From Minisyncoccota bacterium (GTDB lineage: Bacteria > Patescibacteriota > Minisyncoccia > Phycocordibacterales > UBA9973): DNA of 64,000 nt. Numbering within the stretch: the stretch's first letter is position 1; every line of letters begins with the position of its first letter. Below are positions 11,235 through 62,628 of this stretch, in pieces. A program made the translations under genes and the position numbers. Where the stretch lies: the NCBI GenBank assembly GCA_035714785.1, contig DASTLQ010000004.1:48248-112247 (forward strand). The letters run 5' to 3'. The notes under the pieces were generated by a model that ran no database searches, was not told the origin of the DNA, and worked only from the letters and a program-made list of their open reading frames with translations.

Positions 11235-12968
11235 TTAATTAGTTTTTGCAAATATTTTCCAAATATTGTCCACCTCTGTATACCAAAGATGGGAGTTTAA
11301 AAATCTGTCCTTGGAAGATGAGAGATTTTCACTCGAAATTCCTTCGACGTTTCCTTTTACTACGTAAATAAAACTTGGACTATATAGAAAGACTGCTGGT
11401 TTTTCTTTCTTTATTTCTTGTTCAAACTGGCTATATTTTTCTGCTCGTACCTCTTCGTCGAGAGTGATCAATGCTTCTTCCAAAATTTTGTCTACTCGCA
11501 CATTTGTGTACATTGCAACATTTAACCCAGGATCTTTTCGCTGAGACGAATGCCAGAATGCAAACAAGTCTGATTGTCGATTGACGATTTCTCCGAATAG
11601 TAAGGCGTCATATTTTCGTGGGCGAATGACAGTCTGATTCAAATCTCCGGATTCAAAAGTTTTTATTTCTACTTGTATGCCGAAATGATCAAGGTCTTCT
11701 TTCACGATGTTTGCTGCTCGGACCAGATCTTCTGAGTTGCTGGTGGAGATAGAAAAGGAGAGAGACTGGTTGTCTTTTCCTTTTTGCCAAATTCCGTCAG
11801 CGTTCTTTTTCCAACCACTTTTGGTTAGCAATTCTTCCGCTTGCGTGATTCGTTCGTCGCGAGGCAGGGTATCTCCATAATTTCCGTTTACTGAAAGTGG
11901 GTCTGGCAGTGGACCGTTGATTACTTTTCCGTATCCATATAGTACCTCACTTACTATTCTATTTTTATCCACCAAAAGGTCAATAGCACTGATGATGTTT
12001 TTGTCTGTAAAAATTTGGTTCTCGCTTTGATTAAAGAAAATACCGAAGATTCGTGGAAGAATATATGACTCCACTCGGTAGCCTTTGCTTTCCAAGAGTT
12101 CTGCGTTTCTAGGAGAGATTTGGGAGATGTGCTCCACTTCTTTTCTTTCAAGGGCAGAAATCAGATCTATTTCGTTTTGATAAAAACGGATATCCATTTT
12201 TTTAATATATGGTCTTCCTAGAGCAAATTTCTTGAAAGGAACTAGTTCAGCTGAGGTGATAGTACCCTGAGGGCTTTTACCCATTTTCTTTATTTGAAAA
12301 GCGCCGGACCCAATTGGGTTAATATTTAAATCTGAAAGTTCCAAGGGAAAACCATTCCAAAGATGTTCGGGCAAAATTCCCACTGTGGTATTTTCAATAA
12401 AAGAAGCATCCGGTCCACGCAATCTAAATGAGACAGTCAGGTCGTCAATCTTTTCTACCTCCACTCCGTCCCAGTTGGCACTGAGAGGGGATCGTAAGAC
12501 AGGATTTTTAATTTCACTGATGGTAAAGAGGATGTCGTCGGCACTGACAGACTCACCGTCATGGAAAAATACTTTTTCTTTTAGCGTGAAAGTGTAAGTA
12601 CGTCCGTCTTCTGAAATCTCGTAACTTTCCGCAAGGTCTGGAATGAGGTCACCTTCAGGATCTTTTCGTAAAAGACCAGAATATACTAGAGCTGAAAGAT
12701 CACGGTCTACGTCAGTGAAAGCAAGTACTGGATTAATGAAGCGGGGAGTACCCACGATTCCTTCTGTGACGCTTCCTCCTCGGAGTGGAGTCTTTACCAT
12801 AAATGATTGATTCAAGTCATGAAGCAGAATAAATGAGCTTATTAAAAATGCAAAAGTCAGCACCGAAAGAATCACCCATTCTTTTTTTGAAAAAGCTGAA
12901 AACGCCAAGAGAAAGTCCTTTTTTGAAGGCAATTTTAAATTGCGTATGAAATCAAATATTTTTTGCAT
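11235..12968 (-). CDS. ABC transporter substrate-binding protein, family 5 (peptide/nickel-type), membrane anchored
   Basis: N-terminal TM helix. DPEGDLIPDLAESYEISEDGRTYTFTLKEKVFFHDGESVSADDILFT matches the SBP_bac_5 signature. Confidence 0.7.
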   Translation of the reverse strand: MQKIFDFIRNLKLPSKKDFLLAFSAFSKKEWVILSVLTFAFLISSFILLHDLNQSFMVKTPLRGGSVTEGIVGTPRFINPVLAFTDVDRDLSALVYSGLLRKDPEGDLIPDLAESYEISEDGRTYTFTLKEKVFFHDGESVSADDILFTISEIKNPVLRSPLSANWDGVEVEKIDDLTVSFRLRGPDASFIENTTVGILPEHLWNGFPLELSDLNINPIGSGAFQIKKMGKSPQGTITSAELVPFKKFALGRPYIKKMDIRFYQNEIDLISALERKEVEHISQISPRNAELLESKGYRVESYILPRIFGIFFNQSENQIFTDKNIISAIDLLVDKNRIVSEVLYGYGKVINGPLPDPLSVNGNYGDTLPRDERITQAEELLTKSGWKKNADGIWQKGKDNQSLSFSISTSNSEDLVRAANIVKEDLDHFGIQVEIKTFESGDLNQTVIRPRKYDALLFGEIVNRQSDLFAFWHSSQRKDPGLNVAMYTNVRVDKILEEALITLDEEVRAEKYSQFEQEIKKEKPAVFLYSPSFIYVVKGNVEGISSENLSSSKDRFLNSHLWYTEVDNIWKIFAKTN

Positions 12969-21350: not shown

Positions 21351-22395
21351 ATACACAAGAACGTCATCCATACGGATAGGCGTTTTTGTTTGAACTTTGA
21401 CAATATGATTGAATAAAATTGAGAACGCCGACATTTCAAGTCGGCAAGCAAGTCTCAAGAAGTTTTGTAAATAAATAATCAGAGCTAGGAACAAGAAATT
21501 AAAACACAAAAACAATACTGTTTTTTGTTTTGTTTCGTTCCACTGTCAATTTTTTAAAATGACAGCCTAACTTTTAGTTAGAGTTTGATCCTAGCTCAGG
21601 ATGAACGCTGGCGGCGTGGCTAAGGCATGCAAGTCGAACGAATCAGTCCCATGAATGGATGAAAGAAGTTTTGAGTAGCAATACAAGAGACAGATGGATT
21701 TCTGGATTGGGTTTGCTGGTTAGTGGCGAACGAGGTAGTAATACATAGGAACTTCCCCCAGAGTCGTGAATAATCCGGAGAAATCCGGACTAATACACGA
21801 TGGTCTCTTCCGCCAATTGGCGGAAGAGTAAAGTTTTAACGCTCTGGGAAAGGCCTGTGCGATATCAGCTAGTTGGTAGGGTAATGGCCTACCAAGGCTA
21901 TGACGTCTAGGGGAGCTGAGAGGCTGACCCCCACCGATGGAACTGAGACACGGTCCATACACCTACGGGTGGCTGCAGTCAAGAACCTTCCACAATGGAC
22001 GAAAGTCTGATGGAGCGACGCCGCGTGATTGATGAAGTCCCTTTGGGACGTAAAGATCTTTTATGAGGGAAGAAGTTTATTGACGGTACCTCATGAATAA
22101 GAGGCTCCTAATCTCGTGCCAGCAGGAGCGGTAATACGAGAGCCTCGAGCGTTATCCGGAATTATTGGGCGTAAAGGGTGCGTAGGTTGTTCTGTTAGTC
22201 TTTCGTTAAATCCTTGGGCTTAACCCAAGAACCGCGGAAGAAACGGCAGGACTTGAAAGTGCGAGAGGCGTACGGAACTCATGGTGTAGGGGTGAAATCC
22301 GTTGATATCATGGGGAACACCGAAGGCGAAAGCAGTACGCTGGCGCATATTTGACACTGAAGCACGAAAGCGTGGGTAGCGAATGGGATTAGATA

Positions 22396-23436
22396 ATCCC
22401 GTCACCGCATTACAATAGTGACGAAGGTGTCTCTTTTTTGTGGCGACACAAGATTGCAATCTAGCTATATCGGTGAAACTCCATACAATATGAAATTTAC
22501 TGATTTCGTATGGACAACCCCGAGGGAAGTTTGATATTTATATCAAACCCCGTAGAGACTATGAATTTGAGAAAAGATAGTAGGAGTTATTAACATTAAT
22601 AAATATGAAAATAACACCTTTGTCAAAAAATGTTCGAGACATCATTCTCGGGTCACTTTTGGGAGATGGCTCTTTGGCCATAAATCCAAAATACAAAAGT
22701 CCTCGATTTTCTTTCAGGCATTCCGTTAAACAAAAGGAATATTTCTTTTGGAAGATGGACATGTTAAAAGAAATTTCAGGTGAATCTTGTTATTGGCTTC
22801 AAGGTAGTGAAAAAAAGCCAGATGGTTGGGGAACGGCCAAATACCGTTTTCAGAGCAGGGCATTGGCTTGTTTGACTGAAATTTATAATCTAACTCATCA
22901 CAGAGTTTCAGGTACTAAAGTTCGGGTAACAAGAAAATGGCTAAATCAATTGTCTCCTTTGTCGCTTGCGATATGGTGGCAAGATGATGGATCCCTTGTA
23001 TCTGATTCCCGCCAGGGAGTGATTTGTACGGATGGTTTTTCCTTTGAAGAAGTGGAAATCATTCATCAATATTTTAGAAAAGTTTGGAATATTGAAACAA
23101 AAATTGGCCGAGTTTCAAATCAAGATAAGTGGAGGATTTGGATTCGATCTTCTGAGGAACTAAAAAAATTCCTCAGGATTATAATTCCGCATGTGTATAC
23201 AAAAAGCATGCTTTATAAAATACTCCTCATCTATAAAGACTCTCAAGTTCAAGAACGCTGGATATCTGAGTTAATTTCTTTAGGAAATTTTTCTGAAAAA
23301 GAAATTAGAGAAGTTCTAGAAAATAGAATTTCAAGAAAGCTCAGATAAAGATATAGTCCGGACTGTATGGCAACATACAGAGGTAAACAGAAATGTTTTA
23401 CCCTTCATAATTTAATTATGAAAGTAACAAAATCAA
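22396..23436 (+). mobile_element. intron (probably group I) inserted in 16S rRNA after GGGATTAGATA, carrying a homing-endonuclease ORF
   Basis: It breaks the universally conserved GGATTAGATACCCTGGTAGTCC region. The boundaries are approximate, to within a few nt. Confidence 0.7.
22605..23348 (+). CDS. double-motif LAGLIDADG homing endonuclease (intron-encoded)
   Basis: Two LAGLIDADG motifs, ILGSLLGDGSL and AIWWQDDGSL, in a 247-aa ORF lying entirely within the 16S intron. Confidence 0.85.
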   Translation: MKITPLSKNVRDIILGSLLGDGSLAINPKYKSPRFSFRHSVKQKEYFFWKMDMLKEISGESCYWLQGSEKKPDGWGTAKYRFQSRALACLTEIYNLTHHRVSGTKVRVTRKWLNQLSPLSLAIWWQDDGSLVSDSRQGVICTDGFSFEEVEIIHQYFRKVWNIETKIGRVSNQDKWRIWIRSSEELKKFLRIIIPHVYTKSMLYKILLIYKDSQVQERWISELISLGNFSEKEIREVLENRISRKLR

Positions 23437-23531
23437 CCCCAGTAGTCCACGCCCTAAACGATCTTCTCTCGGTTTTCGGAGTATCGACCCTCTGAGAGCC
23501 TTAGCTAACGCGTTAAGAGAAGCGCCTGGGA

Positions 23532-23563
<32 letters not shown>

Positions 23564-23977
23564 AGACGGGGACTTGCACAAGCAGTGGATTATGTGGTTT
23601 AATTCGATGGTAAACGAAGAACCTTACCAGGGTTAGAAATCCTATTGAAAGGTCTAGGAAACTAGATCCCTCGCAAGACTGTAGGACAGGTGATGCATGG
23701 CCGTCGTCAGTTCGTGGTTTGAATTGTACCCTTAAGTGGGCTAACGAACGCAACCCTCGTTGTGTGTTACAAGTGTCACACGAGACTGCCCCCACCAAAG
23801 CGCACGAAGCGCGAAAATTTTTTCGCAATAACTTCGCGAATTTTGGTGGGGGAGGAAGGAGAGGATGACGCCAGGTCAGCATGTCCCTTTGATACCCTGG
23901 GCTACACACATAATACAATGGCCGTTACAACGCGCAGCGACGAGGCGACTCTGAGCTAATCGTCTAAAAGTGGCCTA

Positions 23978-24014
<37 letters not shown>

Positions 24015-24412
24015 TGGAATTGCTAGTAATCGCGGGTCAGCTAAACCGCGGTGAATACGTTCTCAAGTCTTGTACTCACCGCCCGTCAATTCAAGGGAGC
24101 CGGGAGTACCCGAAGGCTCTGCGTTCGCAGGGACTACGGTAAGCTCGGTGACAGGGAATAAGTCGTAACAAGGCACGGCTAGCGGAAGCTGGTCGTGGAA
24201 TAATTCAATTTGAAAATCTTCTTTTCTGCTTTATGCGGGAAAGAATTATTGAGTCGATATTGTACAGCTCAATTGACTGTACAATGGACAATGATTTCAG
24301 TCCTAAAAGGAATCTGACATGAGGCAAAGACCCAAGTTAAGGAACGAAACAAAACAAAGGACAGTAAGAAAAAGCTCGCTAATGGCGAGCTTTTTCTGTT
24401 ATAATTTTAGAC

Positions 24413-38424: not shown

Positions 38425-40893
38425 ATGGCAAAGATTAAAGCACCAATAGAAGAAATACCGAGAGTAAACGTAGTGCCCGTGGATGTAGTGGCAGAAATGA
38501 AAGAATCATACTTGGCCTATGCCATGTCTGTGATCACTTCGCGTGCCCTTCCTGATGTCCGAGATGGATTAAAGCCAGTGCATCGTCGTATTCTCTATGC
38601 CATGCATGAAATGGGACTTACTGTTTCGGGTCGTTTCAGAAAGTCAGCTGCAGTAGTCGGAGACGTGCTCGGAAAATATCATCCACATGGAGACGTGGCA
38701 GTTTATGACTCTATGGTGGGAATGGCTCAGGACTTTTCGTACAGATACCCTCTAATCATGGGGCAAGGAAACTTCGGTTCTATTGATGGAGACAACGCTG
38801 CTGCTATGCGTTATACCGAGGCCAAAATGTCTAGAATTTCTTCGGAGCTTCTTCGTGATCTTGAAAAGGAAACTGTAGACCTGCGCGCAAACTACGATCA
38901 GACTTTAAAGGAACCTTCCGTGCTTCCAGCTGCAGTGCCTACATTGCTTTTGAATGGAACTCTAGGTATTGCAGTCGGAATGGCTACAAATATACCTCCG
39001 CACAATTTGTTTGAAGTGGTGGAAGCTACTCGACACTTGATTGAGAATGAGGATGCTACTACCGAAGACTTGATGCAATTTGTAAAAGGTCCCGATTTTC
39101 CAACGGGCGGTATTGCTTATGGGCAAAAAGATATGCTCCATGCATATTCAGGTGGCCGAGGAGGAGTGGTTTGTCGAGGAGAGGCTGAGATTGTAGAAAA
39201 CAAAGGAGGAAATTTCCAAATCATCATCACTTCTATTCCTTATCGTGTAAACAAAGCAAACCTCATCATGGCTATCGCCGAACTAGTGCAGGAGAAAAAG
39301 CTGGATGGCATCAAGGGTCTGCGTGACGAATCCACTCGCGATATTCGCATCGTGATCGACTTGAAATCAACCGCTCATCCGGAAAAAGTATTAAATTATA
39401 TTTATAAAAATACCCAGCTTGAATCCAATTTTAATTTCAATATGGTGGCCTTGGTAGAAGGAGTTCCTCAGACTCTTTCTCTAAAATCTATTCTTTCCCA
39501 GTTTATTCTTCACCGTAAAGAAGTGGTCCGCAGGAGGACAGAATACGATTTACGGAAAGCCGAAGAGCGTGAGCATATTTTGCTTGGTTTGAAAAAAGCG
39601 CTTGATAAAATCGATCGAGTGATCACCATCATTCGTGGCTCTAAAAATTCAGCTGCCGCAAAAATAAATTTGATAAAGGAATTTAAATTCTCTGATCTTC
39701 AGGCTACCGCTATTTTGGAAATGCGACTTTCCAAGCTCGCAGGCCTTGAAAGAAAGGCAGTACTCGATGAACTTGAAGAAAAGCAAAAATTCATAAAAGA
39801 AATGAAAGAAATTTTGGCTAGTGCAAAGCGAATGCTAAAGATTATTTCCACAGAGCTTGGCGAGATTGCAGAAAAATACAAAGATGAACGCCGAACCAGA
39901 ATCATGAAAGGGGGAGTGAAAGAAATCTCCGACGAAGACTTGATTCCAGAAAAAGAAACTGTGCTAGTGCTTACCGCTGGCGGGTACGTAAAGCGCACTG
40001 ATCCATCAGAGTATCGCTCACAGAAGCGAGGAGGAGTAGGAGTAGTAGATCTAGAGACAAAGGAAGAAGATTTTGTCACCATGCTTGTCTTCGGCTCAAC
40101 TCATAGCGATCTATTATTCTTTACCAATCTTGGAAAAGCATATCAGATGAAGATGTATGATATACCAGAGGGCCGACGAGCTACTCGCGGAAAGTCCATC
40201 ATGAATTTCCTAGCGCTTGGTGGTGAAGAAAAAGTGACTTCAATTTTAGCTTTGCCAAAAAATCTAGATAAATCAGGTCTTTCTCTCATGCTGGTCACCA
40301 AGGCCGGCACAGCAAAGAAGATGTCCGCAGGAAGCTTCAAAGACGTACGTCGAAGCGGAATCATTGCTATTCGCCTAGAAAAAAATGACAGCTTGATCGG
40401 AGCATTTTTGACAGACAAGGGAGATGAAGTGATGGTAGCCACAGGCGAGGGACAGTCTATCCGATTCAAGGAATCTGATATACGCGAGATGGGACGTTCT
40501 GCGGGTGGAGTGAGAGGAATCAAGCTTGGAAAGAGTGATGAAGTAATCGGAGTAGATGTAATTAAAAAAGATAGTACCCCATCCGCCGGCGGAGGATATT
40601 TCCTCACCATGAGTGCAAATGGTTTTGGAAAGAAAACTTCCTTGAAAGAATACAAGGTACAGAAAAGAGGGGGAAGCGGTATCAAGACTGCCAAAGTCAC
40701 CACCAAGACAGGAAAGCTGATCGTAGGGAAAGTGCTTACTGGAACTGAAGAGGAAATCATCGCGATGTCCAAAAAGGGACAGGTGATTCGTACCGCCTTG
40801 AAAGATATCTCGGCTCTCGGCAGACAGACTCAAGGAGTGACTGTGATGAGATTGCGTTCGGGTGATAGTATTGCGTCAGTGGTGTGTTCCTAG
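38425..40893 (+). CDS. gyrA: DNA gyrase subunit A
   Basis: [20 protein letters not shown] and [20 protein letters not shown], with catalytic Tyr. C-terminal beta-pinwheel repeats carry QKRGGVG/QKRGGSG GyrA-box-like motifs. Confidence 0.9.
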
Positions 40894-40918
40894 AGGTAGG
40901 GCTATAAAGCTTTGCAAA

Positions 40919-41440
40919 ATGTTTACAAATCCAGAAAAAAATTTAAGAGAATTTAATCTCCAAGAACACATGATCGTGGCGGACCTTGGCGCAGGCACAG
41001 GGCACTATGCTATTCCAGCTGGTAGAATTGTTTCTCGAGGAAAAGTTTATGCAGTAGAAATACAAAAAGATTTCTTAGAAACTATTCGTAATCGCGTAAA
41101 AGAATCTCACTTGGGAAATGTCGAGTGTTTATGGGGCAATATTGAAAAAATTGGAGGCACCAAGCTTGGCGACGATACCATCGATCGAGTGATAGCTTCA
41201 AACGTATTTTTCCAAGTAGATGATAAGAATGATTTTATAAAAGAAGTAAAGAGAATTTTAAAGCCCGGTGGCAAGGTTCTTTTGATAGATCACTGCCCCG
41301 AGCGATCACATCTGGGGCTTAAGAGTGCGGTCTCAAAAGAAAAGGCGAAAGAAATGTTTATCGGTAAAGGATTTGAATTTGAGAAATTTATTGACGCAGG
41401 AAGCCATCATTATGGTATAATTTTAATTAACAAAAAGTGA
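40919..41440 (+). CDS. class I SAM-dependent methyltransferase
   Basis: VADLGAGTGHYAI is motif I (GxGxG). The acidic residue after beta-2 is AVE. Confidence 0.6.
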   Translation: MFTNPEKNLREFNLQEHMIVADLGAGTGHYAIPAGRIVSRGKVYAVEIQKDFLETIRNRVKESHLGNVECLWGNIEKIGGTKLGDDTIDRVIASNVFFQVDDKNDFIKEVKRILKPGGKVLLIDHCPERSHLGLKSAVSKEKAKEMFIGKGFEFEKFIDAGSHHYGIILINKK

Positions 41441-42729
41441 AAAATTTTCAGATAATCATTCTCATCGTATTCATCATTGGCGCTATCGTAGGTATTTTAG
41501 TATTCTCGGGAACTATTCCACTCGGAGATAAAGATAATGAAGAAGGTTCAGGTGGAACAGTGGTACTTTGGGGTACTATGAAATCCGCTGATATTGCCTT
41601 TGCAGTCGAAGACTTTAATAGAACCAACAATGTATACAATCTCCAATATGTAGAAAAGCGTGCAGAAACTTTTGATCAAGACCTACTCGAAGCACTAGCA
41701 TCCGGAGTTGGACCTGACCTTTTTATAATTTCAAATGATTTGGTATATAAATACAGCAACAAAATTCTGACCATTCCCTACAAGAGCTATCCAATTGCCG
41801 TTTTCAAACAAAATTTCGTAGGGGCTGGGGAAGTATTTTTAAACTCCCTAGGTGCCATGGCTTTTCCACTAGCAGTAGATCCTATGGTGATGTACTACAG
41901 CCGTTCTATGCTTGATTCAAATAATATCGTGTATCCTCCAGAAACTTGGGATCAGCTCGGAGCTTTAGCTCCCGTGCTTGGAAGAAAAGATGAATCAAGG
42001 AAGATCCTAAAAAGCGCAGTGGCGCTGGGGCAGTTTTCAAATGTCAGACACGCAAAGGATATCATGGCGATGCTCTTTATGCAGGCAGGAAATCCGATTG
42101 TCGCAGAGAGGAGTGGTTCCTTCATTTCAGTACTTGATCAATCCACAGCTACCTACAACCCGGAAGCTATTTTAGAAGCTTATACAGCCTTTGCTAATCC
42201 AATGAAGGAAGTTTACTCTTGGAATAAATCTCTGCAAAATTCTCAAGATGCTTTCAGTGCCGAAAATCTCGTATTTTATTTTGGATATGCGACGGAGCTT
42301 CGATCTCTCGTAGAAAAAAATCCCAATCAAAATTTTATGGTGGCTCCTATGCCTCAGATTCCTGGTTCTCAAGCTAAGCTTACTTTCGGTAGGGTGACAG
42401 GGGTAGCAGTATCGAGTGCTTCAAAAAATTTAAACAGCGCATTTTTAGTGGCAAGCCTTTTGTCCACCAGTAATTTCGGAGGAGAATTTGCTAAAGCTAT
42501 GGGAGCAGCTCCTGCGCGTAGAGAATTGCTCACTGCCACTCCCGAGGATTCCTATCAGCCAGTATTTTATTCCTCTGCTTTGATTGCTCGAAGTTGGCTG
42601 GATCCTTCACCAATCGATTCAAATGAAATCTTTCAAGGAATGGTGGAAAAGGTACTATCAAATAACCTAAATCCGTCCCAAGCTATTCGTGAGGGTTCTT
42701 CAAAATTAAATTTATTACTTATTCGATAA
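41437..42729 (+). CDS. extracellular solute-binding protein (ABC transporter SBP family 1-like), membrane anchored
   Basis: N-terminal TM helix followed by GTVVLWGTMK and a periplasmic-binding-protein type II fold pattern. Confidence 0.45.
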   Translation: MKNFQIIILIVFIIGAIVGILVFSGTIPLGDKDNEEGSGGTVVLWGTMKSADIAFAVEDFNRTNNVYNLQYVEKRAETFDQDLLEALASGVGPDLFIISNDLVYKYSNKILTIPYKSYPIAVFKQNFVGAGEVFLNSLGAMAFPLAVDPMVMYYSRSMLDSNNIVYPPETWDQLGALAPVLGRKDESRKILKSAVALGQFSNVRHAKDIMAMLFMQAGNPIVAERSGSFISVLDQSTATYNPEAILEAYTAFANPMKEVYSWNKSLQNSQDAFSAENLVFYFGYATELRSLVEKNPNQNFMVAPMPQIPGSQAKLTFGRVTGVAVSSASKNLNSAFLVASLLSTSNFGGEFAKAMGAAPARRELLTATPEDSYQPVFYSSALIARSWLDPSPIDSNEIFQGMVEKVLSNNLNPSQAIREGSSKLNLLLIR

Positions 42730-42730
42730 T

Positions 42731-43120
42731 ATGTATAAAAAAATAATTTTTCTCGCAGTTGTTCTTCTTCTGGTCATCGCTCCGGTAGATATTTTCCCTG
42801 CAGTAGCAGAAGGATTGGTAAAGTGTGGCACAGATAAGCCATGCGGATTTGAAGATCTTTTGATTTTAATAAATACGGTAGTGAACTTCGTGATGATTCA
42901 GTTAATGATTCCTTTGGCTGCGCTTTTGTTTGCTTATGCGGGAGGAATGCTGATGTTCTCAGGAGGAGAAGTATCAAAGAGACAACAAGCCAAGAAAATA
43001 TTTACCAATGTCGCCCTAGGTCTCATCATAGCGGCCGCATCATGGCTCATCGTCAATACAGTCCTTACCATTATGGGGTATAACGGTGCTTGGATAGGAT
43101 TTAAAGATGTTGTACAATAA
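42731..43120 (+). CDS. pilin-like two-TM small protein (CPR T4SS-pilin / VirB2-TrbC-like family), paralog 1
   Basis: Signal/TM segment, then a hydrophobic helix, a short charged loop (GGEVSKRQQAKK) and a second hydrophobic helix. Confidence 0.45.
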   Translation: MYKKIIFLAVVLLLVIAPVDIFPAVAEGLVKCGTDKPCGFEDLLILINTVVNFVMIQLMIPLAALLFAYAGGMLMFSGGEVSKRQQAKKIFTNVALGLIIAAASWLIVNTVLTIMGYNGAWIGFKDVVQ

Positions 43121-43502
43121 ATTTATGAAAATTATAAAAAATCCACTTGTTATCATCACTATCATAATGCTGGTGTCCTTTTTTCCTTTGGTTACATTTG
43201 GTCAGGCTACTGGTAGCGCACCACCTGCACCCCCCGTGGAAAACCCAATTAAAAATCCCATCGGTGTCAGCTCGTTTACTGGACTCCTAAAACAAATCCT
43301 GGAAGGGGCGATCAAAATTGGTATGCCAGTCATAGCGCTTGCGATTATTTATTCAGGTTTTCTTTTTGTTGCAGCTCAAGGTAATCCAGAAAAACTCGAT
43401 ACGGCCAAGAAATCTTTCGTATATACTTTGATCGGAGCAGCTATACTACTCGGAGCTTGGGCACTGGCTCAAGTGATCACAACGACCGTGCTTTCTTTAT
43501 AA
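43107..43502 (+). CDS. pilin-like two-TM small protein, paralog 2
   Basis: Same topology. The loop reads AAQGNPEKLDTAKKS. Confidence 0.45.
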   Translation: MLYNKFMKIIKNPLVIITIIMLVSFFPLVTFGQATGSAPPAPPVENPIKNPIGVSSFTGLLKQILEGAIKIGMPVIALAIIYSGFLFVAAQGNPEKLDTAKKSFVYTLIGAAILLGAWALAQVITTTVLSL

Positions 43503-43520
43503 ACTAATATAATTATTTAA

Positions 43521-44435
43521 ATGGAAATCAAAGATATAATAATCAAGCTCGGAAATTTACTGGATACATTGTTACCCGTATTAGTTTTAGCTGGTGTGGT
43601 GATTTTCGTTTGGGGAGTGATTCAATACGTGATAGGAGGGGACGAAGAAGCCAAATCAAAAGGAAAGAATCGCATCATCTGGGGTATCGTCGGGTTTGCG
43701 ATCATTGCAGGATTATATGGTTTAATCAATATAGTATTAAATACTTTTGGGTTGGATCCATCGAGCGGAAATTTGGTTTCGCCTACGGGCCTAGTTCCTG
43801 CTACACCTACGCCAGGTACTTGTGAGGGTACTGGTAACATCGGTTCACTCATCTGTAAAATTGGAACAATTCTCAATTCTATCATTCCTCTCCTCATCAG
43901 CTTCGGGGTAGTAATCTTTGTATGGGGAGTAGTGCAGTACGTGATAGGAGGGGACGAAGAAGCCAAATCAAAAGGAAAAGACAGAATGATTTGGGGAATC
44001 ATCGGACTAGTGGTGATCGCCTCAATGTGGGGATTGGTCAATATGGTAGTGAAAACTTTTGACTTAAATCCGACGGGGTCTAGTGGAGTGGCTAATCAAT
44101 TTTTACAAAATACTAGCCAACTCGGTAATACTCCCGGTACTTGTTCTATCGCTGCAACGGGAGCAAGTCTCGGGGACCTTATGAATTATGCGACCTGTCT
44201 GATTACTAAGTCGGTAATTCCTCTAATCTTTTCATTGGCAGTTCTCTTGTTCGTCTGGGGAGTAGTACAGTATGTGATATCTGGAGCAAATGAAGAACAA
44301 AAAGACAAAGGGAAGAATTTCATGATATGGGGAATCATTGCGCTTACTGTGATGGTGTCTGTCTGGGGGATTGTGCGCATTGTAGGTGATACTTTTGGGA
44401 TAGAATATGCGATTCCGCAGGTGAAGAGCAGGTAG
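43521..44435 (+). CDS. triple-module pilin-like protein (three tandem two-TM pilin-like units fused in one ORF)
   Basis: Three repeats of VIFVWGV(I/V)QYVIGGDEEAKSKGK(N/D)R(I/M)IWGI(V/I)G...NTFGL. The first two share an identical 40-nt stretch TACGTGATAGGAGGGGACGAAGAAGCCAAATCAAAAGGAAA. Confidence 0.5.
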   Translation: MEIKDIIIKLGNLLDTLLPVLVLAGVVIFVWGVIQYVIGGDEEAKSKGKNRIIWGIVGFAIIAGLYGLINIVLNTFGLDPSSGNLVSPTGLVPATPTPGTCEGTGNIGSLICKIGTILNSIIPLLISFGVVIFVWGVVQYVIGGDEEAKSKGKDRMIWGIIGLVVIASMWGLVNMVVKTFDLNPTGSSGVANQFLQNTSQLGNTPGTCSIAATGASLGDLMNYATCLITKSVIPLIFSLAVLLFVWGVVQYVISGANEEQKDKGKNFMIWGIIALTVMVSVWGIVRIVGDTFGIEYAIPQVKSR

Positions 44436-44567
44436 GCGGTATCCACAGTTTCCTCTTTTGTCTTTATTTTGTATGGTATAATTAAAAAAGAACCTAAACA
44501 TTAGGAAAAAATTATAAGGTCGTTTCCGCGAGAGCGGTGTTATCAATAATCCCGTTAGGGAAAAAAA

Positions 44568-44954
44568 ATGAAAAATAAATTAATCGTATTTATGGTTTCC
44601 GCAGCCTCATTGGCTTCTATGCCTTTGTTTGCTTTGGCGCAGGGTAGAGGAGGTGCTTGTAGTGTAGTAAACACACAAAATACCATTCAGGGTATCATTT
44701 GTAAGGCAGGAGAAATATTGGGAGTAGTGCTTCCATTCTTGGTTGCATTGGCAGTTGTTATCTTTGTGTGGGGAGTAGTGATGTATGTTGTTTCAAGTGA
44801 CGAGGAAGCAAAGAGCGCTGGAAGAAACAGAATGATCTGGGGAATTGTCGGTCTTGCAGTGATCGTATCATTGTGGGGATTGGTAAGAATCTTGACCAAT
44901 ACTTTTGACCTTAACACAAATCAGGGTGTTACTTTGCCAGTACTTCCTTACTAA
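44568..44954 (+). CDS. pilin-like two-TM small protein, paralog 4
   Basis: VIFVWGVVMYVVSSDEEAKSAGRNRMIWGIVGLAVIVSLWGLVRILTNTFDL is the same module. Confidence 0.5.
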   Translation: MKNKLIVFMVSAASLASMPLFALAQGRGGACSVVNTQNTIQGIICKAGEILGVVLPFLVALAVVIFVWGVVMYVVSSDEEAKSAGRNRMIWGIVGLAVIVSLWGLVRILTNTFDLNTNQGVTLPVLPY

Positions 44955-44957
44955 TAA

Positions 44958-45296
44958 ATGATGACCTGGCTCTTCGGAAATATAGCCTACGCGAGCGTGG
45001 ATGCCTTTATGGCAAACGTGGGACGGCTCATCATCAATCCACTCATTACTCTTCTTTTTGCCTTGGCGGCTGCATACTTTCTTTACGGGGTTTTCCAGTT
45101 TATTGCAAATGCCCAAAATGATGAGAAGAGAACTCAAGGCAAAAGTCATATGCTTTGGGGAGTGATCGGAATAGTGATAATGTTGGGAGTATGGACAATA
45201 CTAAATATTGTTTTAAAAACTTTCAATATTGATGGAATAAATCCTGAGCAGGGAACAGTACAATTAAACGAGTACAACCCAAGCTTTCCGAAGTAG
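44958..45296 (+). CDS. pilin-like two-TM small protein, paralog 5
   Basis: AAAYFLYGVFQFIANAQNDEKRTQGKSHMLWGVIGIVIMLGVWTILNIVLKTFNI. Confidence 0.45.
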   Translation: MMTWLFGNIAYASVDAFMANVGRLIINPLITLLFALAAAYFLYGVFQFIANAQNDEKRTQGKSHMLWGVIGIVIMLGVWTILNIVLKTFNIDGINPEQGTVQLNEYNPSFPK

Positions 45297-45379
45297 CATA
45301 GAATTGTGAAATTAAGTAGCACAGAAACGAAAATATAATCAGGAATATAAAAAGGCGAGCTATGTGCTCGCCTTTTGCG

Positions 45380-45928
45380 TTAATGATTTACTACCTCCCA
45401 AATCCTAACTCTTGCTGTGTTGTTAGGATTTCCAGAGACTATTCTTACGGCACCAGCACTCCTTGGCGGGATTGCGATGGTGCCTTTTCCAGAATAGAAG
45501 ATTGTGTCTTTTATTCCTGGAAAGATCATTTTGATTGGATCTCCTTGCGTATCCAATTCAAAATCGTAGTCAAAGATTACGAGGCATGGCGTGTAAGTGT
45601 CATGCCTTAGAATGAGTGCTTTCGTGGTGGGCGGCGGGGGAGAATACGTGTGGACAGTTGTCACAGGCTTCGGAAACCATGATTCTGTCCATGCCGAAAT
45701 TACTTTCAGCATGACAAAAAGAAAAACTATGATTGCGCCGATCATTAATGTGTTAATGATCAGTTTGCTGTTCGAGTTGTTTTTTATTATGGTTGTAGAT
45801 CCGGCAGGAGGTGAGCAAGGAGAAGGGTTTGAAGAATGGATCTTTGCCTTTTGTTTTGCTGCGGCATAAGCTATCAACGAAAAGAAGACCAAGATCACTA
45901 TAACGAGAAGTGCAATAATATAAATCAT
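45380..45928 (-). CDS. membrane protein co-transcribed with SPFH protein (possible NfeD-like partner)
   Basis: Its start overlaps the stop of the SPFH gene. Two TM helices precede a soluble beta-rich C-terminal domain. Confidence 0.3.
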   Translation of the reverse strand: MIYIIALLVIVILVFFSLIAYAAAKQKAKIHSSNPSPCSPPAGSTTIIKNNSNSKLIINTLMIGAIIVFLFVMLKVISAWTESWFPKPVTTVHTYSPPPPTTKALILRHDTYTPCLVIFDYDFELDTQGDPIKMIFPGIKDTIFYSGKGTIAIPPRSAGAVRIVSGNPNNTARVRIWEVVNH

Positions 45929-47179: not shown

Positions 47180-47908
47180 TTACGCGTGTTTCATTGGAGC
47201 AGAGCGATACTGTGATTCACCTCCGAAATATTTTCTCCAGATAAAGACAATCGCGCCGATTAGTATGACGAATATAATCCACTGAAGGATGCCTGTAGGA
47301 AAGAATCCACGAGAACCGAATACTGCGTTTGCGGTGAGGCTCTTGTAGCTTTCGTCGCCACGAATTGTGCCACTTGTATTTCCCGACATACTTTCATAAC
47401 CAGTTAGTGCACTAGCACCATAGGATCCGCCAGTGTATGAGGTATATCCTGTGGGAGCAGTAGAATTTACTACAAAGGAAGCAGGATTTGAAAATCCACC
47501 ACCTGGCATATCGTTTATCACTGTGATGTATTGTCTGCCTGGTGTCATCACATCTCGTTCATTAAGCTGTACTACTAGGCGAGTGGGACTCACATAGGTG
47601 ACAGTGCGAGGAGCGTCATTAAAGCGAACATTGGAGCTCGGAATAAAACCATTTCCTGTAATAGTGACTTTTATTATTTGTGCTTGAACTGTCGCGCTAT
47701 CAGGTGTGATAGATAGGATGTATGGTACTGGGTTTAGGGCCGGGGTAGAAGGGTTGTAGTTCCCGCCTGGGTTATATGACGGTCCTGTGTCTGCAAATGG
47801 GGCAGGCTGAAAATACGTATAAACTCGTGCGTCTGAAATACCTGGAAAAGCTAGGAAAAACCCTGAAATTCCAAGGATTATTAAGTTGTATTTAATGATA
47901 TTACTCAT
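47180..47908 (-). CDS. membrane-anchored IPT/TIG (Ig-like) domain protein
   Basis: Start trimmed to the Met at 47908, because the longer ORF overlaps tRNA-Leu. Signal/TM, ITPDSATVQAQIIKVTITGNGF Ig-like, and a C-terminal TM helix. Confidence 0.45.
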   Translation of the reverse strand: MSNIIKYNLIILGISGFFLAFPGISDARVYTYFQPAPFADTGPSYNPGGNYNPSTPALNPVPYILSITPDSATVQAQIIKVTITGNGFIPSSNVRFNDAPRTVTYVSPTRLVVQLNERDVMTPGRQYITVINDMPGGGFSNPASFVVNSTAPTGYTSYTGGSYGASALTGYESMSGNTSGTIRGDESYKSLTANAVFGSRGFFPTGILQWIIFVILIGAIVFIWRKYFGGESQYRSAPMKHA

Positions 47909-47944
47909 AAGTAATAGTATATCACCTTTAGAGCAAAATGTCAA

Positions 47945-48029
47945 GGTGCTGGAGGAGGGACTCGAACCCTCAAGCCTTGCGGCACTAGTTCCTAAGACTA
48001 GCGCGTATACCAATTCCGCCACTCCAGCA
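47945..48029 (-). tRNA. tRNA-Leu (anticodon TAG), type II
   Basis: Reverse complement GCTGGAGTGGCGGAATTGGTATACGCGCTAGTCTTAGGAACTAGTGCCGCAAGGCTTGAGGGTTCGAGTCCCTCCTCCAGCACC. Anticodon loop CTTAGGA, long variable arm. Confidence 0.9.
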
Positions 48030-48058
48030 AACAAAATACTTTCATGCATCATACTGCA

Positions 48059-55992: not shown

Positions 55993-56784
55993 ATGCCCAG
56001 ACGTTGGACAACCACAGAAGAAAATAAATATCGCTTGGAATTATTTTCGCTTTATATAGAGCAAAACAAAAGCCTGCGTGAAGTTGCTTTAGCTCTTAAT
56101 ATTACGGAAGCCAGTGTGTTCTCAAGATTAAAAAGATTGGGAATAAAAACTTGCCCGACTCTCAAGGATAACTATCTTCGAAAAAGAAAAGATTTAACGA
56201 TTCCCACAGAGTACTCAGCAGACTTGGCGGAATTCTTTGGTGTCATGCTTGGGGATGGACACCTCAGTCATTTTCAGGCTACGGTTACGTTAGGTAATAA
56301 GGAAAAAAACTACGCTGAGCATGTAAGTGTACTTTTTCAAAAAGTTTTTGGCGTAGCAGGTACGATTTGCGTACGGAAGAGCTTGTATAGAGATGTGTAT
56401 CTTGGCTCGGTAGAGGTTACATCGTGGTTGTTTAAAGAAGGTCTTGTTTCTAATAAGGTGAAATCACAAGTGAATGCACCTTCTTGGATATTTCGAGAAA
56501 GTATTCTCATGGAAAATTTTTTACGAGGATTTTTTGATACTGACGGATCAGTTTATAAATTAAAATTTGGCATTCAGATTTCGTTCTGCAACAGATCGTT
56601 ACCGTTGCTGGAATCTTTACATTTAATGCTAAAAAAGTTAAAATACCATCCGTCAAATATCAGTGGTTTTAATTTTTATCTTACTAGACGAAAAGAAGTC
56701 AAAAGATTCTTTGAAGAGGTAAGGCCTGCTAATTCAAAGCACGTTAGGAGATATTTTGAAATAATGAATGCGTCGGTCGGATAG
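55993..56784 (+). CDS. free-standing double-motif LAGLIDADG homing endonuclease with N-terminal HTH region
   Basis: Motifs FFGVMLGDGHL and LRGFFDTDGSVY. The 3' end overlaps the first ~15 nt of tRNA-Tyr. Confidence 0.7.
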   Translation: MPRRWTTTEENKYRLELFSLYIEQNKSLREVALALNITEASVFSRLKRLGIKTCPTLKDNYLRKRKDLTIPTEYSADLAEFFGVMLGDGHLSHFQATVTLGNKEKNYAEHVSVLFQKVFGVAGTICVRKSLYRDVYLGSVEVTSWLFKEGLVSNKVKSQVNAPSWIFRESILMENFLRGFFDTDGSVYKLKFGIQISFCNRSLPLLESLHLMLKKLKYHPSNISGFNFYLTRRKEVKRFFEEVRPANSKHVRRYFEIMNASVG

Positions 56785-56853
56785 TGGCTATTCCAGGAGA
56801 CTGTAAATCTCCCGCCTTAATTGGCATCGGTGGTTCGAGTCCACCCCGGCGCA
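56770..56853 (+). tRNA. tRNA-Tyr (anticodon GTA), type II
   Basis: GCGTCGGTCGGATAGTGGCTATTCCAGGAGACTGTAAATCTCCCGCCTTAATTGGCATCGGTGGTTCGAGTCCACCCCGGCGCA. Anticodon loop CTGTAAA, long variable arm. Confidence 0.85.
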
Positions 56854-56899
56854 CAACATGTAAGGGGACATGTAAGGGGACCCCTTACACCTTACACCC
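56854..56899. repeat. repeat copy R9 (palindrome module only)
   Basis: Reads CAACATGTAAGGGGACATGTAAGGGGACCCCTTACACCTTACACCC, directly after tRNA-Tyr. Confidence 0.8.
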
Positions 56900-56905
56900 A
56901 AAAAT

Positions 56906-57334
56906 ATGGACACAAATCCTGACAATAAAAAAAAGTTTTTAAAAAACAGTAAAAGGATTTTTATCTGTAACATCGTTGTTGTTCTAGGTTATATTGGCTT
57001 CTTTTTATTGGTAGGAGAAAATTTTGGTCTCATATTTGCATATTTGCCGTTGATAATAGCTTTGATGTTTCTTTCCTTGATTACAATAATATCCGATATA
57101 TATTTAGCGGTGCATTATTTTAAATACAAAGATTACAAAATGTTCTCCCTTGCTTTGCTTCTGTTAGTGATAGTGTCTTTTCCGTTTTATCTTCCATTAA
57201 TAAATTTATCTTCGAACAGTTCAAAATTGGAAAGGATGAATCAGCAACTTCTTTTCAACGAACAACAAGAAATGGCTGAGAAAGCCATATTAAAGGAACG
57301 AGATGAATTAATGAAAGAGCCAACGGGCATTTAA
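56906..57334 (+). CDS. hypothetical polytopic membrane protein (AT-rich)
   Basis: Three or four hydrophobic helices and a C-terminal charged tail. Confidence 0.3.
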   Translation: MDTNPDNKKKFLKNSKRIFICNIVVVLGYIGFFLLVGENFGLIFAYLPLIIALMFLSLITIISDIYLAVHYFKYKDYKMFSLALLLLVIVSFPFYLPLINLSSNSSKLERMNQQLLFNEQQEMAEKAILKERDELMKEPTGI

Positions 57335-57443: not shown

Positions 57444-58001
57444 TTGAAAAAACAAATCAGTTTCTCTACGTTTTTAGCAACTTGGTTTATGTCTGGGTTG
57501 CTAAAACCCATTCCGCCATTTAAGGCGATGGCAGGGACATACGGTAGCTTTCTGGCGCTTCCTTTGTGTTATTTAGGGTTAATATATTCTGAAAATTTAT
57601 TTTTTAACACCACGCCAACTGATGCAGGAAAATTTGTTTTATACATGGCTCTGGTGGTAATGGTGTATTTTTTTGGCATGCTAACTGTACCTATTGCTGA
57701 AGATGAATTAGGGGAGCAAATAGACTGGAAGGGTAAAATCAAAACAAGGGATCAGAACCAGATTGTAATTGACGAGGTTTTGGGAATGCTAATTTCTTGC
57801 ATTCCGATACTTTTCGTACCGCGAAAGTTAGAGTATTTTCTGTTTGCTTTCGTGCTGTTTAGAATCTTTGATATTGTTAAGATCCCGCCAACCAGGTACT
57901 TTGATAAAATCAAAAGTGCCTTTGGGGTGATGATGGACGACGTGATCGCGGGAATATATGCCGCAGCGTCGTTATGGTTTTTGATTAAGTATTTATTGTA
58001 G
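57444..58001 (+). CDS. pgpA: phosphatidylglycerophosphatase A-like (PgpA family)
   Basis: AGTYGSFLALPL and IDEVLGMLIS resemble the PgpA motifs (GTFGSL, DEVVGM). Confidence 0.5.
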   Translation: MKKQISFSTFLATWFMSGLLKPIPPFKAMAGTYGSFLALPLCYLGLIYSENLFFNTTPTDAGKFVLYMALVVMVYFFGMLTVPIAEDELGEQIDWKGKIKTRDQNQIVIDEVLGMLISCIPILFVPRKLEYFLFAFVLFRIFDIVKIPPTRYFDKIKSAFGVMMDDVIAGIYAAASLWFLIKYLL

Positions 58002-61197: not shown

Positions 61198-62628
61198 ATG
61201 TGGAAATGGAAGGATCTGTCCAAGGATGTTATCGGGCCAATAGAGCTCGTTATTATTTTAGTCATTCTCTATACGCTTGCGTCTATGATTTTTCCTGCTC
61301 TGGCAGTCACTCTGTCTTCTGACGCAGGAATTGTAAATGTTGTCTTTTTCTATCTGTATAAATTTATCTTACTTATTTTCCCAGTGGCGGGAACTATCTT
61401 CTTACTATATTACGCTCACATGTTTTGGCTACATTATATTCGTGCAAACTTTATTTCTGGGATTACTTGGGTGTTGTTAGAAGTTACACCTCCGCGAGAC
61501 GTTTTAAGGTCCCCGAGAGCAATGGAGCTTTTTTTAAACAATGCTTTATATCATATGAGCGAAAAAAGTGGGCTTGAAATGTACTGGCAGGGAGCGGTAA
61601 GATTTTGGTTTTCACTTGAGATTGCTTCTATTGGCGGACAGGTTCGTTTTTATATACGTGCTCCGAGCAGGACCAAGGAATTGCTTGAGACTCAGATGTA
61701 TGCAGCATATCCGCAGTCACAGGTGAGAGTAGTAGAAGACTATACTCTAGCCGTGGATAAGATCACTGAAGACAGCAAATGGAACCTGTGGGGTTGTGAA
61801 TTCACTTATACAAACCCCGATGCTTATCCTATTAAAACTTACGTAGACTACGGCCTCGACAAGGATCCAAAAGAAGAACAGAAAGTAGATCCTATCGCTC
61901 CGGTGGTAGAGCTTTTCAGTGTGATTGGTAAAGATGAGCAGATGTGGTGCCAGATCGTCGTGGCTCCTTCAAAGAAACAATACAAGACTCCCGGAACTTT
62001 GTTTAAGACTCATGGATGGGTGGAAGAAGTTGAAGAGGAAATAAAGAGGCTCTTAATTCAATTTACCCGTCAGCACCCTAAACAACCAAACGGTATTACT
62101 CCTATAGAAATTCGACCACCGGATTTCTTGTCGGAGATTACCAAAAAGGCTAGCGCCAAAATGCTAAAGCTTGGTTTTGATACCGGAATAAGGGTTTGTT
62201 ATGTTGCTAAAAAAGAGGCTTTCAACATGAACAACAGACGTAATATTCGTATGATCTTTCGCCAGTATGCTGCTCCAAATTCAAATGAACTAGTGAGGGT
62301 GAATTCTACTCAGGCAGATGCTTTTGGAAAAAATCAATTCACCGCGTTTTTTCCACTTTCAACCAAAAAGGTTTATAAACTGGCTGATCGTATGTTGCTT
62401 GAATATAGAGAGCGAGAATTCTTTAATCCACCTATGAGACACAAGATTCATCTACCCTGGCCCCTTTCTCCATTGATCTTTCCGAATTTTTTTCATCACC
62501 ATATTATGGTCATGAATACCGAAGAAATTGCTACCCTTTGGCACTTCCCAGGTCAGATTTTGAAAGTACCAAGCCTAGAGCGTATCGAATCCAAGGAAGC
62601 TTCTCCTCCTACAAATCTTCCAATTTAA
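61198..62628 (+). CDS. hypothetical membrane protein (three N-terminal TM helices, large cytoplasmic domain)
   Basis: No nucleotide-binding or catalytic motif recognised. Confidence 0.35.
   Translation: MWKWKDLSKDVIGPIELVIILVILYTLASMIFPALAVTLSSDAGIVNVVFFYLYKFILLIFPVAGTIFLLYYAHMFWLHYIRANFISGITWVLLEVTPPRDVLRSPRAMELFLNNALYHMSEKSGLEMYWQGAVRFWFSLEIASIGGQVRFYIRAPSRTKELLETQMYAAYPQSQVRVVEDYTLAVDKITEDSKWNLWGCEFTYTNPDAYPIKTYVDYGLDKDPKEEQKVDPIAPVVELFSVIGKDEQMWCQIVVAPSKKQYKTPGTLFKTHGWVEEVEEEIKRLLIQFTRQHPKQPNGITPIEIRPPDFLSEITKKASAKMLKLGFDTGIRVCYVAKKEAFNMNNRRNIRMIFRQYAAPNSNELVRVNSTQADAFGKNQFTAFFPLSTKKVYKLADRMLLEYREREFFNPPMRHKIHLPWPLSPLIFPNFFHHHIMVMNTEEIATLWHFPGQILKVPSLERIESKEASPPTNLPI

Follow-up and report, generated by a model that had tools for sequence, protein, structure and literature searches.

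A conserved chromosomal operon of single and fused pilin-like hairpin modules in a Minisyncoccota bacterium

What kind of structure is built from a row of pilin-like genes, one of which encodes three pilin modules in a single chain, when no type IV secretion system (T4SS) is encoded beside them? We met this question in a stretch of 64,000 nucleotides from a Minisyncoccota bacterium (assembly GCA_035714785.1, contig DASTLQ010000004.1, positions 48,248 to 112,247), referred to here as the window. Five of its genes, P1 to P5, together encode seven two-helix hairpin modules. We hold it somewhat better than an even bet (probability about 0.55) that these modules are VirB2-like subunits of a Patescibacteria T4SS that form a fixed heteromeric set, with P3 as a covalent fusion of neighboring subunits. 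The family assignment and the topology are backed by data; the dependence on a T4SS and the formation of a filament we infer.

An earlier inspection of the DNA (the original prediction) had described five consecutive open reading frames (ORFs) on the forward strand with seven modules between positions 42731 and 45296. We found the genes and modules in these places:

42731..43120, forward strand: P1, 129 amino acids, PF18895 score 32.8 bits; module at nucleotides 42845-43084.
43125..43502, forward strand: P2 (NCBI start), 125 amino acids, PF18895 score 36.7 bits; module at nucleotides 43263-43496.
43521..44435, forward strand: P3, 304 amino acids, three fused modules, PF18895 score 101.1 bits with 3 matched stretches.
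43524-43757, 43836-44069 and 44166-44405: modules 3a, 3b and 3c of P3.
43758-43835 and 44070-44165: the two linkers of P3, rich in Ser, Gly, Thr and Pro, with one Cys each.
44568..44954, forward strand: P4, 128 amino acids, PF18895 score 40.4 bits; module at nucleotides 44682-44915.
44958..45296, forward strand: P5, 112 amino acids, PF18895 score 34.2 bits; module at nucleotides 44994-45233.

As judged from hydropathy and PF18895, P1 consists of a signal peptide, a Cys-x5-Cys segment and one hairpin module. P2 is a signal peptide followed by one module and is the most TrbC/VirB2-like of the five; its longest ORF starts at 43107 (131 amino acids) and overlaps P1, while the NCBI start lies at 43125. 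P4 comprises a signal peptide (ALA-QG junction), a Cys-x13-Cys segment and one module. P5 has a 12-residue N-terminal tail without a signal peptide, one module and a conserved C-terminal tail, PEQGTV(Q/H)L. The P3 product is 100% identical to HEU0085427.1, named 'pilin' by NCBI (metagenome-assembled genome, Candidatus Paceibacterota bacterium), and P2 corresponds to HEU0085426.1.

All five proteins score above the gathering threshold of PF18895 (T4SS_pilin, 26.6 bits). The NCBIfam model NF045849 ('Mbov_0395 family pilin-like conjugal transfer protein', curated cut-off 40 bits) is passed by P3 (61.3 bits) and P5 (44.3 bits), with P4 (33.6 bits), P2 (25.7 bits) and P1 (22.2 bits) below the cut-off. 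The peptides VIFVWGVVQYV, GGDEEAKSKGK and MIWGIVGLAVIVSLWGLV, quoted in the original prediction, occur in the array proteins. Its description of the modules as VirB2/TrbC-like, with two transmembrane segments and belonging to the family annotated as T4SS pilin in Patescibacteria, agrees with PF18895, NF045849, the AlphaFold hairpins described below and the NCBI name. That all ORFs carry the same unit is right as far as the common Pfam family goes, but the modules of P1 and P2 are only 13-26% identical to the others. Across the array, paralogous modules share 13-60% identity, and P4 is closest to 3a and 3b at 58-60%.

The array is embedded in a conserved gene order. GyrA, a methyltransferase and a solute-binding protein precede it, with the pilin genes directly downstream:

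40862..41440, forward strand: class I S-adenosylmethionine-dependent methyltransferase (UbiE-like; Pfam Methyltransf_31/11/25).
41437..42729, forward strand: membrane-anchored extracellular solute-binding protein (SBP_bac_1, PF01547, 61 bits).

The 3' end of the methyltransferase gene overlaps the start of the SBP_bac_1 gene by 4 nucleotides, and a single nucleotide separates the SBP_bac_1 stop codon from the ATG of P1. We scanned one genome per GTDB species and obtained 80 related loci (given L numbers below), nearly all labeled Nomurabacteria or Paceibacterota. Of these, 76 have the solute-binding protein upstream of the array, 74 the methyltransferase and 72 GyrA, the exceptions being short contigs. 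The loci L001, L004, L006 and L007, whose P3 homologs are 49-62% identical, show the series S1, Lactamase_B_3, GyrA, methyltransferase, SBP_bac_1, five PF18895 genes and opposite-strand genes.

Modules were counted in 65 complete arrays with a hidden Markov model built from the modules of five genomes. Given as modules per gene, in order, the patterns are:

1-1-2-1-1: 42 of 65 arrays.
1-1-1-2-1-1: 16 of 65 arrays; the modules of the fused triple lie in separate genes.
1-1-3-1-1, the window type: 3 of 65 arrays.
1-1-2-1-1-1: 3 of 65 arrays.
1-1-1: 1 of 65 arrays.

Fusion of modules is near-universal (64/65), and triple fusion is rare (3/65). The triple P3 of the window equals a single-module gene plus a two-module gene of other species, and we infer that it arose through fusion of neighboring pilin genes. 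In a tree of the modules, P1, P2, 3c and P5 form clean orthologous clades; 3a, 3b and P4 share one mixed clade with some clustering within genomes. The pilins of the window are 39-68% identical to their orthologs. Because this range brackets that of the neighboring solute-binding protein (57-61%), the pilins are not generally faster-evolving than the latter. The 'variable' subunits of the original prediction thus find no counterpart in the comparison: the five positions are orthologous over 80 species and diverge no faster than the solute-binding protein.

Hydropathy gives an N-terminal signal-like segment plus two hydrophobic helices for P1, P2 and P4, six helices for P3 and two for P5. A signal or transmembrane segment had been assigned to every ORF; P1, P2 and P4 have one, but P3 and P5 of this genome do not. 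The AlphaFold2 model of P3 contains three hairpins (helices 3-38/42-75, 107-142/146-179 and 217-253/258-292). The linkers have a predicted local distance difference test score (pLDDT) below 50, and the predicted template modeling score (pTM) of 0.39 corresponds to no confident packing between modules. For P2, a signal helix and a confident hairpin were predicted (pLDDT 80.7, helices 51-83 and 88-124).

We surveyed the topology of 68 arrays with 72 inter-module linkers. A hydrophobic N-terminal segment precedes the first module of P1 in 68/68 arrays, of P2 in 62/68, of P3 in 56/68, of P4 in 65/68 and of P5 in 1/68. The linkers comprise 20-37 residues rich in Ser, Gly, Thr, Ala and Pro; none of the 72 is hydrophobic, and 71 contain exactly one Cys. 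In the sequence this Cys pairs with a second one, located where the next module begins; the mature P4 protein has such a pair at its N-terminus. These features fit an arrangement in which both ends of every module lie outside and the charged loop between the helices lies in the cytoplasm. Downstream fused modules would then need no signal peptide of their own, since the preceding hairpin ends outside.

Some P1 orthologs carry 200-330 additional N-terminal residues, including TSP_1 or DUF5018 domains; P1 of the window lacks such an extension. The extended orthologs are:

L024, 8228-9538.
L038, 1857-3098.
L025, 8576-9718.
L032, 6260-7567.

These extensions place the N-terminus of P1 outside, and P1 is a candidate adhesin-bearing subunit.

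Two modules of P3 had been reported to share an identical stretch of 40 nucleotides. The stretch is real, but its length is 41 nucleotides:

43626..43666, forward strand: copy 1 of the exact tract, in module 3a at the junction of the first transmembrane helix (TM1) and the loop (YVIGGDEEAKSKGK).
43938..43978, forward strand: copy 2 of the exact tract, in module 3b.

About 1.5e-4 runs of this length are expected by chance (167 aligned nucleotides, 74% identity). The tract corresponds to 13 consecutive identical codons, whereas elsewhere only 10 of 33 positions with the same residue in 3a and 3b share the codon. Within the 3a/3b/P4 clade, exact tracts of 41 nucleotides (3a/3b, window), 71 nucleotides (3a/P4, L007) and 23 nucleotides (3a/3b, L006) were observed, and all three include the end of TM1 together with the charged loop. 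The loop sequence varies between species but is nearly uniform among 3a, 3b and P4 inside one genome. The pattern argues strongly for gene conversion that homogenizes the cytoplasmic loop of modules 3a, 3b and 4 (concerted evolution). Since these loops evolve in concert, they may contact the same partner or together line one surface.

The gap between P3 and P4 is the longest of the array, with median intergenic distances of 2 nucleotides for P1-P2, 17 for P2-P3, 109 for P3-P4 and 12 for P4-P5. It contains the following elements:

44474..44482, forward strand: predicted extended -10 promoter TGGTATAAT, in the P3-P4 gap (44436-44567).
44513..44522, forward strand: leader motif core TATAAGGTCG, a single occurrence in the window.
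44526-44537 and 44551-44560: hairpins after the leader core.

The promoter was found by comparative alignment; a generic promoter and terminator scan of 40500-45700 performed no better than on shuffled sequence. TG-TATAAT is invariant in an alignment of the gap from six species, and an exact TGnTATAAT occurs in 43 of 78 P3-P4 gaps. Within 160 nucleotides upstream of P4, TGnTAWAAT was found in 23 of 46 arrays, compared with 0-3 of 46 for the other genes. The leader motif reads TATAAGGTCG/ATTATTAG, and in relatives ATTATTA(G) repeats flank the core. GGTCG is present in 64 of 78 gaps at 7.0/kb, compared with 0.55/kb in whole loci and 0.11/kb for the reverse complement (strand-specific, ~13-fold), and ATTATTA is enriched ~40-fold in the gaps. 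We counted 40 occurrences of the composite motif in the gaps and 3 outside them in 2.5 Mb of sequence; these three are found immediately before P4 or between P3 and P4 in loci where the gap definition failed. A structured RNA in the gap was considered and rejected: Rfam gave nothing credible, no consensus structure emerged from RNAalifold and the z-scores of folding were close to zero. As neither an Rfam family nor a consensus RNA structure was detected, the leader motif is probably a protein-binding site. P4 and P5 are likely transcribed separately from their own promoter, and one may speculate that P4 is the abundant subunit.

How closely are the modules related to VirB2 proper? None of the five proteins reaches the gathering threshold of PF04956 (TrbC/VirB2, 27.9 bits): P2 scores 26.2 bits, P1 13.3 bits and P3-P5 have no match. 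Most P2 homologs are annotated with both PF18895 and PF04956. A profile run against the PDB sequences matched only helices of G-protein-coupled receptors, and tblastn of P2 against 72,556 plasmids gave no match. With hhalign, the P2 family was compared with eight annotated VirB2/TrbC genes of conjugative plasmids, each adjoining virB3 and seven also following a gene of the lytic-transglycosylase/VirB1 type. The alignment was co-linear, with a probability of 1.3%. Neither profile-profile nor fold comparison demonstrated direct homology to bona fide VirB2. The proposed likeness to VirB2 rests on the near-threshold PF04956 score of P2, the annotations of its homologs, the topology and the association of the family with T4SSs elsewhere.

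A T4SS elsewhere in this genome is likely, because seven related array-bearing assemblies are listed as VirB4-positive. They comprise the six Nomurabacteria assemblies that we looked up (L019, L037, L060, L061, L070 and L073) and the assembly of L050, which is also listed with 'Presence of VirB4: Yes' (PMC12102498 Table S1). In the same study, VirB4 was found in 2,417 of 3,035 Patescibacteria assemblies (80%; Quinonero-Coronel 2025). Pilins were present in 1,948 VirB4-containing assemblies and lay near virB4 in 1,135 of these (PMC12102498). A location in a T4SS cluster is not obligatory, because the pilin lies away from virB4 in 813 of the 1,948 assemblies.

The 476-residue membrane protein encoded at 61198-62628 had been put forward as a possible partner of the array. 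It found no match in initial Pfam, NCBIfam and PDB searches, turned out to be a DUF8128 protein (PF26449) in a housekeeping neighborhood, and nothing ties it to the array; we rejected it as a demonstrable partner. The protein has N-terminal transmembrane segments and, with 60-74% identity within the lineage, is better conserved than the pilins; its gene always lies between a Sigma70_r4/HARE-HTH gene and YceG. The searched literature contained nothing on DUF8128.

Fused hairpins extend well beyond this lineage. A profile of the seven window modules matched 55,442 clusters (50% identity) at E <=0.001 and 7,046 at E <=1e-10. In many of these the profile aligns to 2-8 stretches, and in some to 10, 11 or 17; the multi-stretch matches are genuine tandem arrays that follow one signal peptide. 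Three examples are:

L098, 9005-14262 of ENA ERZ27249449 contig k141_1518664: array in the same GyrA-methyltransferase-solute-binding protein locus of a more divergent relative.
L100, 10001-15328 of GCA_975902405.1: 17 modules in 1,775 amino acids, PF18895/TrbC tandem hairpins.
L101, 4175-9247 of GCA_002254405.1 (Candidatus Altiarchaeales): 10 modules in 1,039 amino acids, beside a 617-residue PF18895 protein.

In L098 the solute-binding protein and the methyltransferase also lie upstream of the array. Position 3 is a 606-residue protein with seven fused modules; two single-module genes precede it and five follow, which gives 14 modules. A Band_7 (SPFH) gene lies on the other strand after the array, as in the window. 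L100 and L101 are syntenic and show a conserved housekeeping order of archaeal L39e, then the poly-hairpin gene or genes, then the Mrp antiporter; the label Altiarchaeales for L101 is that of the source. No T4SS ATPase is encoded within 10 kb of either locus.

Based on these results we propose the following model. The genes form a vertically inherited chromosomal operon of Nomurabacteria-type Paceibacterota of the candidate phyla radiation (CPR), encoding seven paralogous PF18895/VirB2-like hairpins. P1, P2 and P4 would insert into the membrane by way of predicted cleavable signal peptides. The modules would be handled by the monoderm-type T4SS of the lineage, with VirB4 encoded elsewhere in the genome, as suggested at the level of the family. 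They would assemble into a heteromeric pilus-like or channel structure of fixed stoichiometry where the cell touches its host. In some species P1 would contribute adhesive domains to it, and P4 and P5 would be expressed apart, from their own promoter.

Several points weigh against this model. As the original prediction had noted, VirB4 and VirD4 are missing from the window: none of its 39 large ORFs matched a T4SS family in Pfam. In the window and the 80 related loci the array is encoded neither with virB3, virB4 or virB6 nor in or next to a T4SS cluster, and no T4SS ATPase lies within 10 kb in the 80 loci. Of the 248 ORFs of at least 400 residues in these loci, 229 have homologs in the window and the other 19 lack a Walker A motif. 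The conjugative pili known to date are homopolymers of a single unfused pilin, and covalent chains of 3, 7 or 17 hairpins would be awkward for a subunit that has to leave the membrane and polymerise. A 2025 review treats a pilus of a monoderm T4SS as a possibility and an open question; none has been observed for any such system (PMC12857230).

In the main rival arrangement, the hairpins would stay in the cytoplasmic membrane, packed side by side as a hetero-oligomeric ring, channel or scaffold, and would never be extruded, either as part of a T4SS translocon or independently of one; fusion would fix their stoichiometry, as in the multi-hairpin proteolipids of V/A-type ATPases. This alternative is credible because fusions reach 17 modules and linkage to VirB4 is lacking (80/80 relatives), and we regard it as quite possible, if on balance unlikely. 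It agrees with fusion being the rule (64/65 arrays; seven modules in L098 and 10-17 in Altiarchaeales), with the fixed set and order of modules, with the short flexible linkers and the AlphaFold2 model lacking confident module packing, and with the unobserved monoderm pilus. The adhesin domains of P1 orthologs would equally suit a membrane-anchored adhesin. However, the family annotation and the linkage to T4SS clusters elsewhere favor a role like that of VirB2, the membrane-spanning helices show no conserved polar or acidic residues that would hint at a channel or an ion-binding ring, and the conserved extracellular C-terminal tails and disulfide loops suggest exposure at the surface. More tentative and rather doubtful is the wider notion that PF18895 hairpins, as covalent poly-hairpin chains together with single-hairpin paralogs, build a heteromeric envelope structure of defined stoichiometry and are not classical pilins. 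On this reading, ultrasmall bacteria and some archaea would encode, in core chromosomal operons without linkage to VirB4, a kind of surface or membrane assembly that has no described counterpart among conjugative pili.

P3 might also be a polyprotein whose linkers are cut after membrane insertion to release three equimolar single-hairpin pilins, a reading compatible with our preferred model of a T4SS subunit set. We regard such processing as improbable. In its favor, disorder and a composition rich in Ser, Gly, Thr and Pro mark the linkers, the downstream modules start with a Cys-loop segment like that of mature P4, and 16 species encode these modules in separate genes; but the 72 linkers share no conserved cleavage motif and the operon encodes no dedicated peptidase. 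We give least credence, and very little, to a cassette for antigenic or host-range variation with interchangeable paralogs, as proposed for the virB2 arrays of Bartonella and Anaplasma. The idea has been raised for Patescibacteria arrays (PMC12102498), and it would account for several divergent tandem paralogs (13-60% identity) and for the recombination tracts that join some of them. However, every position keeps signature features of its own and can be matched one to one with its orthologs in other species, and ortholog identity brackets that of the solute-binding protein. The conversion tracts homogenize the cytoplasmic loop rather than the exposed parts, and we found no silent cassettes or invertible elements.

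Only a few systems have been shown to be indispensable to a cultivated CPR bacterium living as an epibiont, and the T4SS with its pilin array is one of them. In the large Paceibacteria lineage studied here, the fixed, ordered and partly fused set of paralogs argues for a heteromer of set stoichiometry rather than for interchangeable variants. The locus offers experimental handles in the intact mass of P3, the abundant subunit (own promoter of P4-P5) and the subunit with adhesion domains (P1). Chains of 7-17 hairpins challenge the simple notion that all proteins of PF18895 are pilus monomers, and the consequence for annotation concerns tens of thousands of metagenomic protein clusters.

The window is otherwise ordinary chromosome, with 16S rRNA, SecA, Mur ligases, GyrA, IF-2, ClpB, BipA and tRNAs. 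A phage origin of the array was considered and is argued against by PHROGs, which gave no match for the five pilin ORFs, the solute-binding protein or the downstream 182-residue protein. The part of the locus from the array to the tRNA cluster, with the 182-residue transmembrane protein and an SPFH protein, is variable and kept in only 7-9 of the 80 relatives. Two solute-binding proteins, SBP_bac_5 (11235-12968) and SBP_bac_1 (41437-42729), have no adjoining ABC permease or ATPase gene. GyrA of the window (38425-40893, 822 amino acids) has no intein; GyrA of L001 (GCA_027428315.1, 2964-6605) has a PF14890 intein and 1,213 amino acids. The 16S rRNA gene (21573-24210) measures 2,638 nucleotides against a model of 1,533 positions. 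Its insertion of ~1.1 kb encodes a LAGLIDADG_2 homing endonuclease (ORF 22605-23348, 130 bits) and is typical of CPR rRNA genes. A LAGLIDADG_3 ORF (55993-56784) lies just after ClpB, and its 3' end overlaps tRNA-Tyr (56770-56854). In the relative L096, BipA directly follows ClpB; because the two genes adjoin there, the block made up of the LAGLIDADG_3 ORF and tRNA-Tyr (55993-56854), a small ORF (56906-57334) and PgpA (57444-58001) looks like an insertion. The longest ORF of a TIG-domain protein (47180-48052, reverse strand) overlaps tRNA-Leu (47945-48028), so the true start of this protein is probably further downstream.

Among known systems, the proteolipids of V-/A-type ATPases (subunits c/K) are also hairpins with both termini outside and the loop inside, which occur singly or as fusions of two, three or more and are assembled side by side. 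This is an analogy only: the window modules have no PF00137 match and no conserved intramembrane carboxylate, and they come with signal peptides and Cys loops. Like Agrobacterium VirB2 and RP4 TrbC, the modules are small, with a long signal peptide, two helices and a short charged loop. Those pilins, however, are encoded by a single unfused gene beside virB1, virB3 and virB4, whereas here seven modules, some of them fused, have no T4SS neighbors. The Mbov_0395 family (NF045849) from integrative and conjugative elements of Mycoplasma shows that similar hairpins exist in monoderm conjugative elements; its members are single-module proteins in mobile elements, in contrast to the chromosomal core operon with fusions described here. 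Our literature search found no functional study of this family. Tandem genes of the VirB2 type are also present in the T4SSs of Bartonella, Anaplasma and Rickettsia (cited in PMC12102498). Their virB2 paralogs are thought to serve antigenic variation, whereas the array described here has stable orthologous positions.

The closest parallels are the VirB2-like pilin arrays of Patescibacteria, and as a kind such arrays are already published (Wang 2023; Quinonero-Coronel 2025). In Southlakia epibionticum ML1, an essential six-gene array lies within the T4SS cluster SEML1_0006-0019 (Wang 2023; PMC10633639). Quinonero-Coronel 2025 called the VirB2-like pilins of Patescibacteria with PF18895 and PF04956 and reported 441 arrays of 2-11 pilin genes in 383 assemblies, with an average identity of ~25% (PMC12102498). 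The locus in the window falls within the published definition of an array, at least two adjacent PF18895/PF04956 genes that are divergent paralogs on a Patescibacteria chromosome. It shares with these arrays the phylum, the families and the tandem divergent paralogs (25% identity there, 13-60% here), as well as the chromosomal location, a context without relaxase and the presumed use of a monoderm-type T4SS. We found no mention of fused multi-module pilins in the searched literature on Patescibacteria arrays (including Wang 2023, PMC12102498 and PMC12857230). Nor did that literature contain the fixed orthologous set, the conversion of the loops, the core location unlinked to a T4SS or the leader motif of P4. 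Whereas the array of S. epibionticum lies in a T4SS cluster, the window-type array belongs to a GyrA-methyltransferase-solute-binding protein context (76 of 80 species). Unlike the published arrays, it has a fused position of 2-3 modules (seven in L098).

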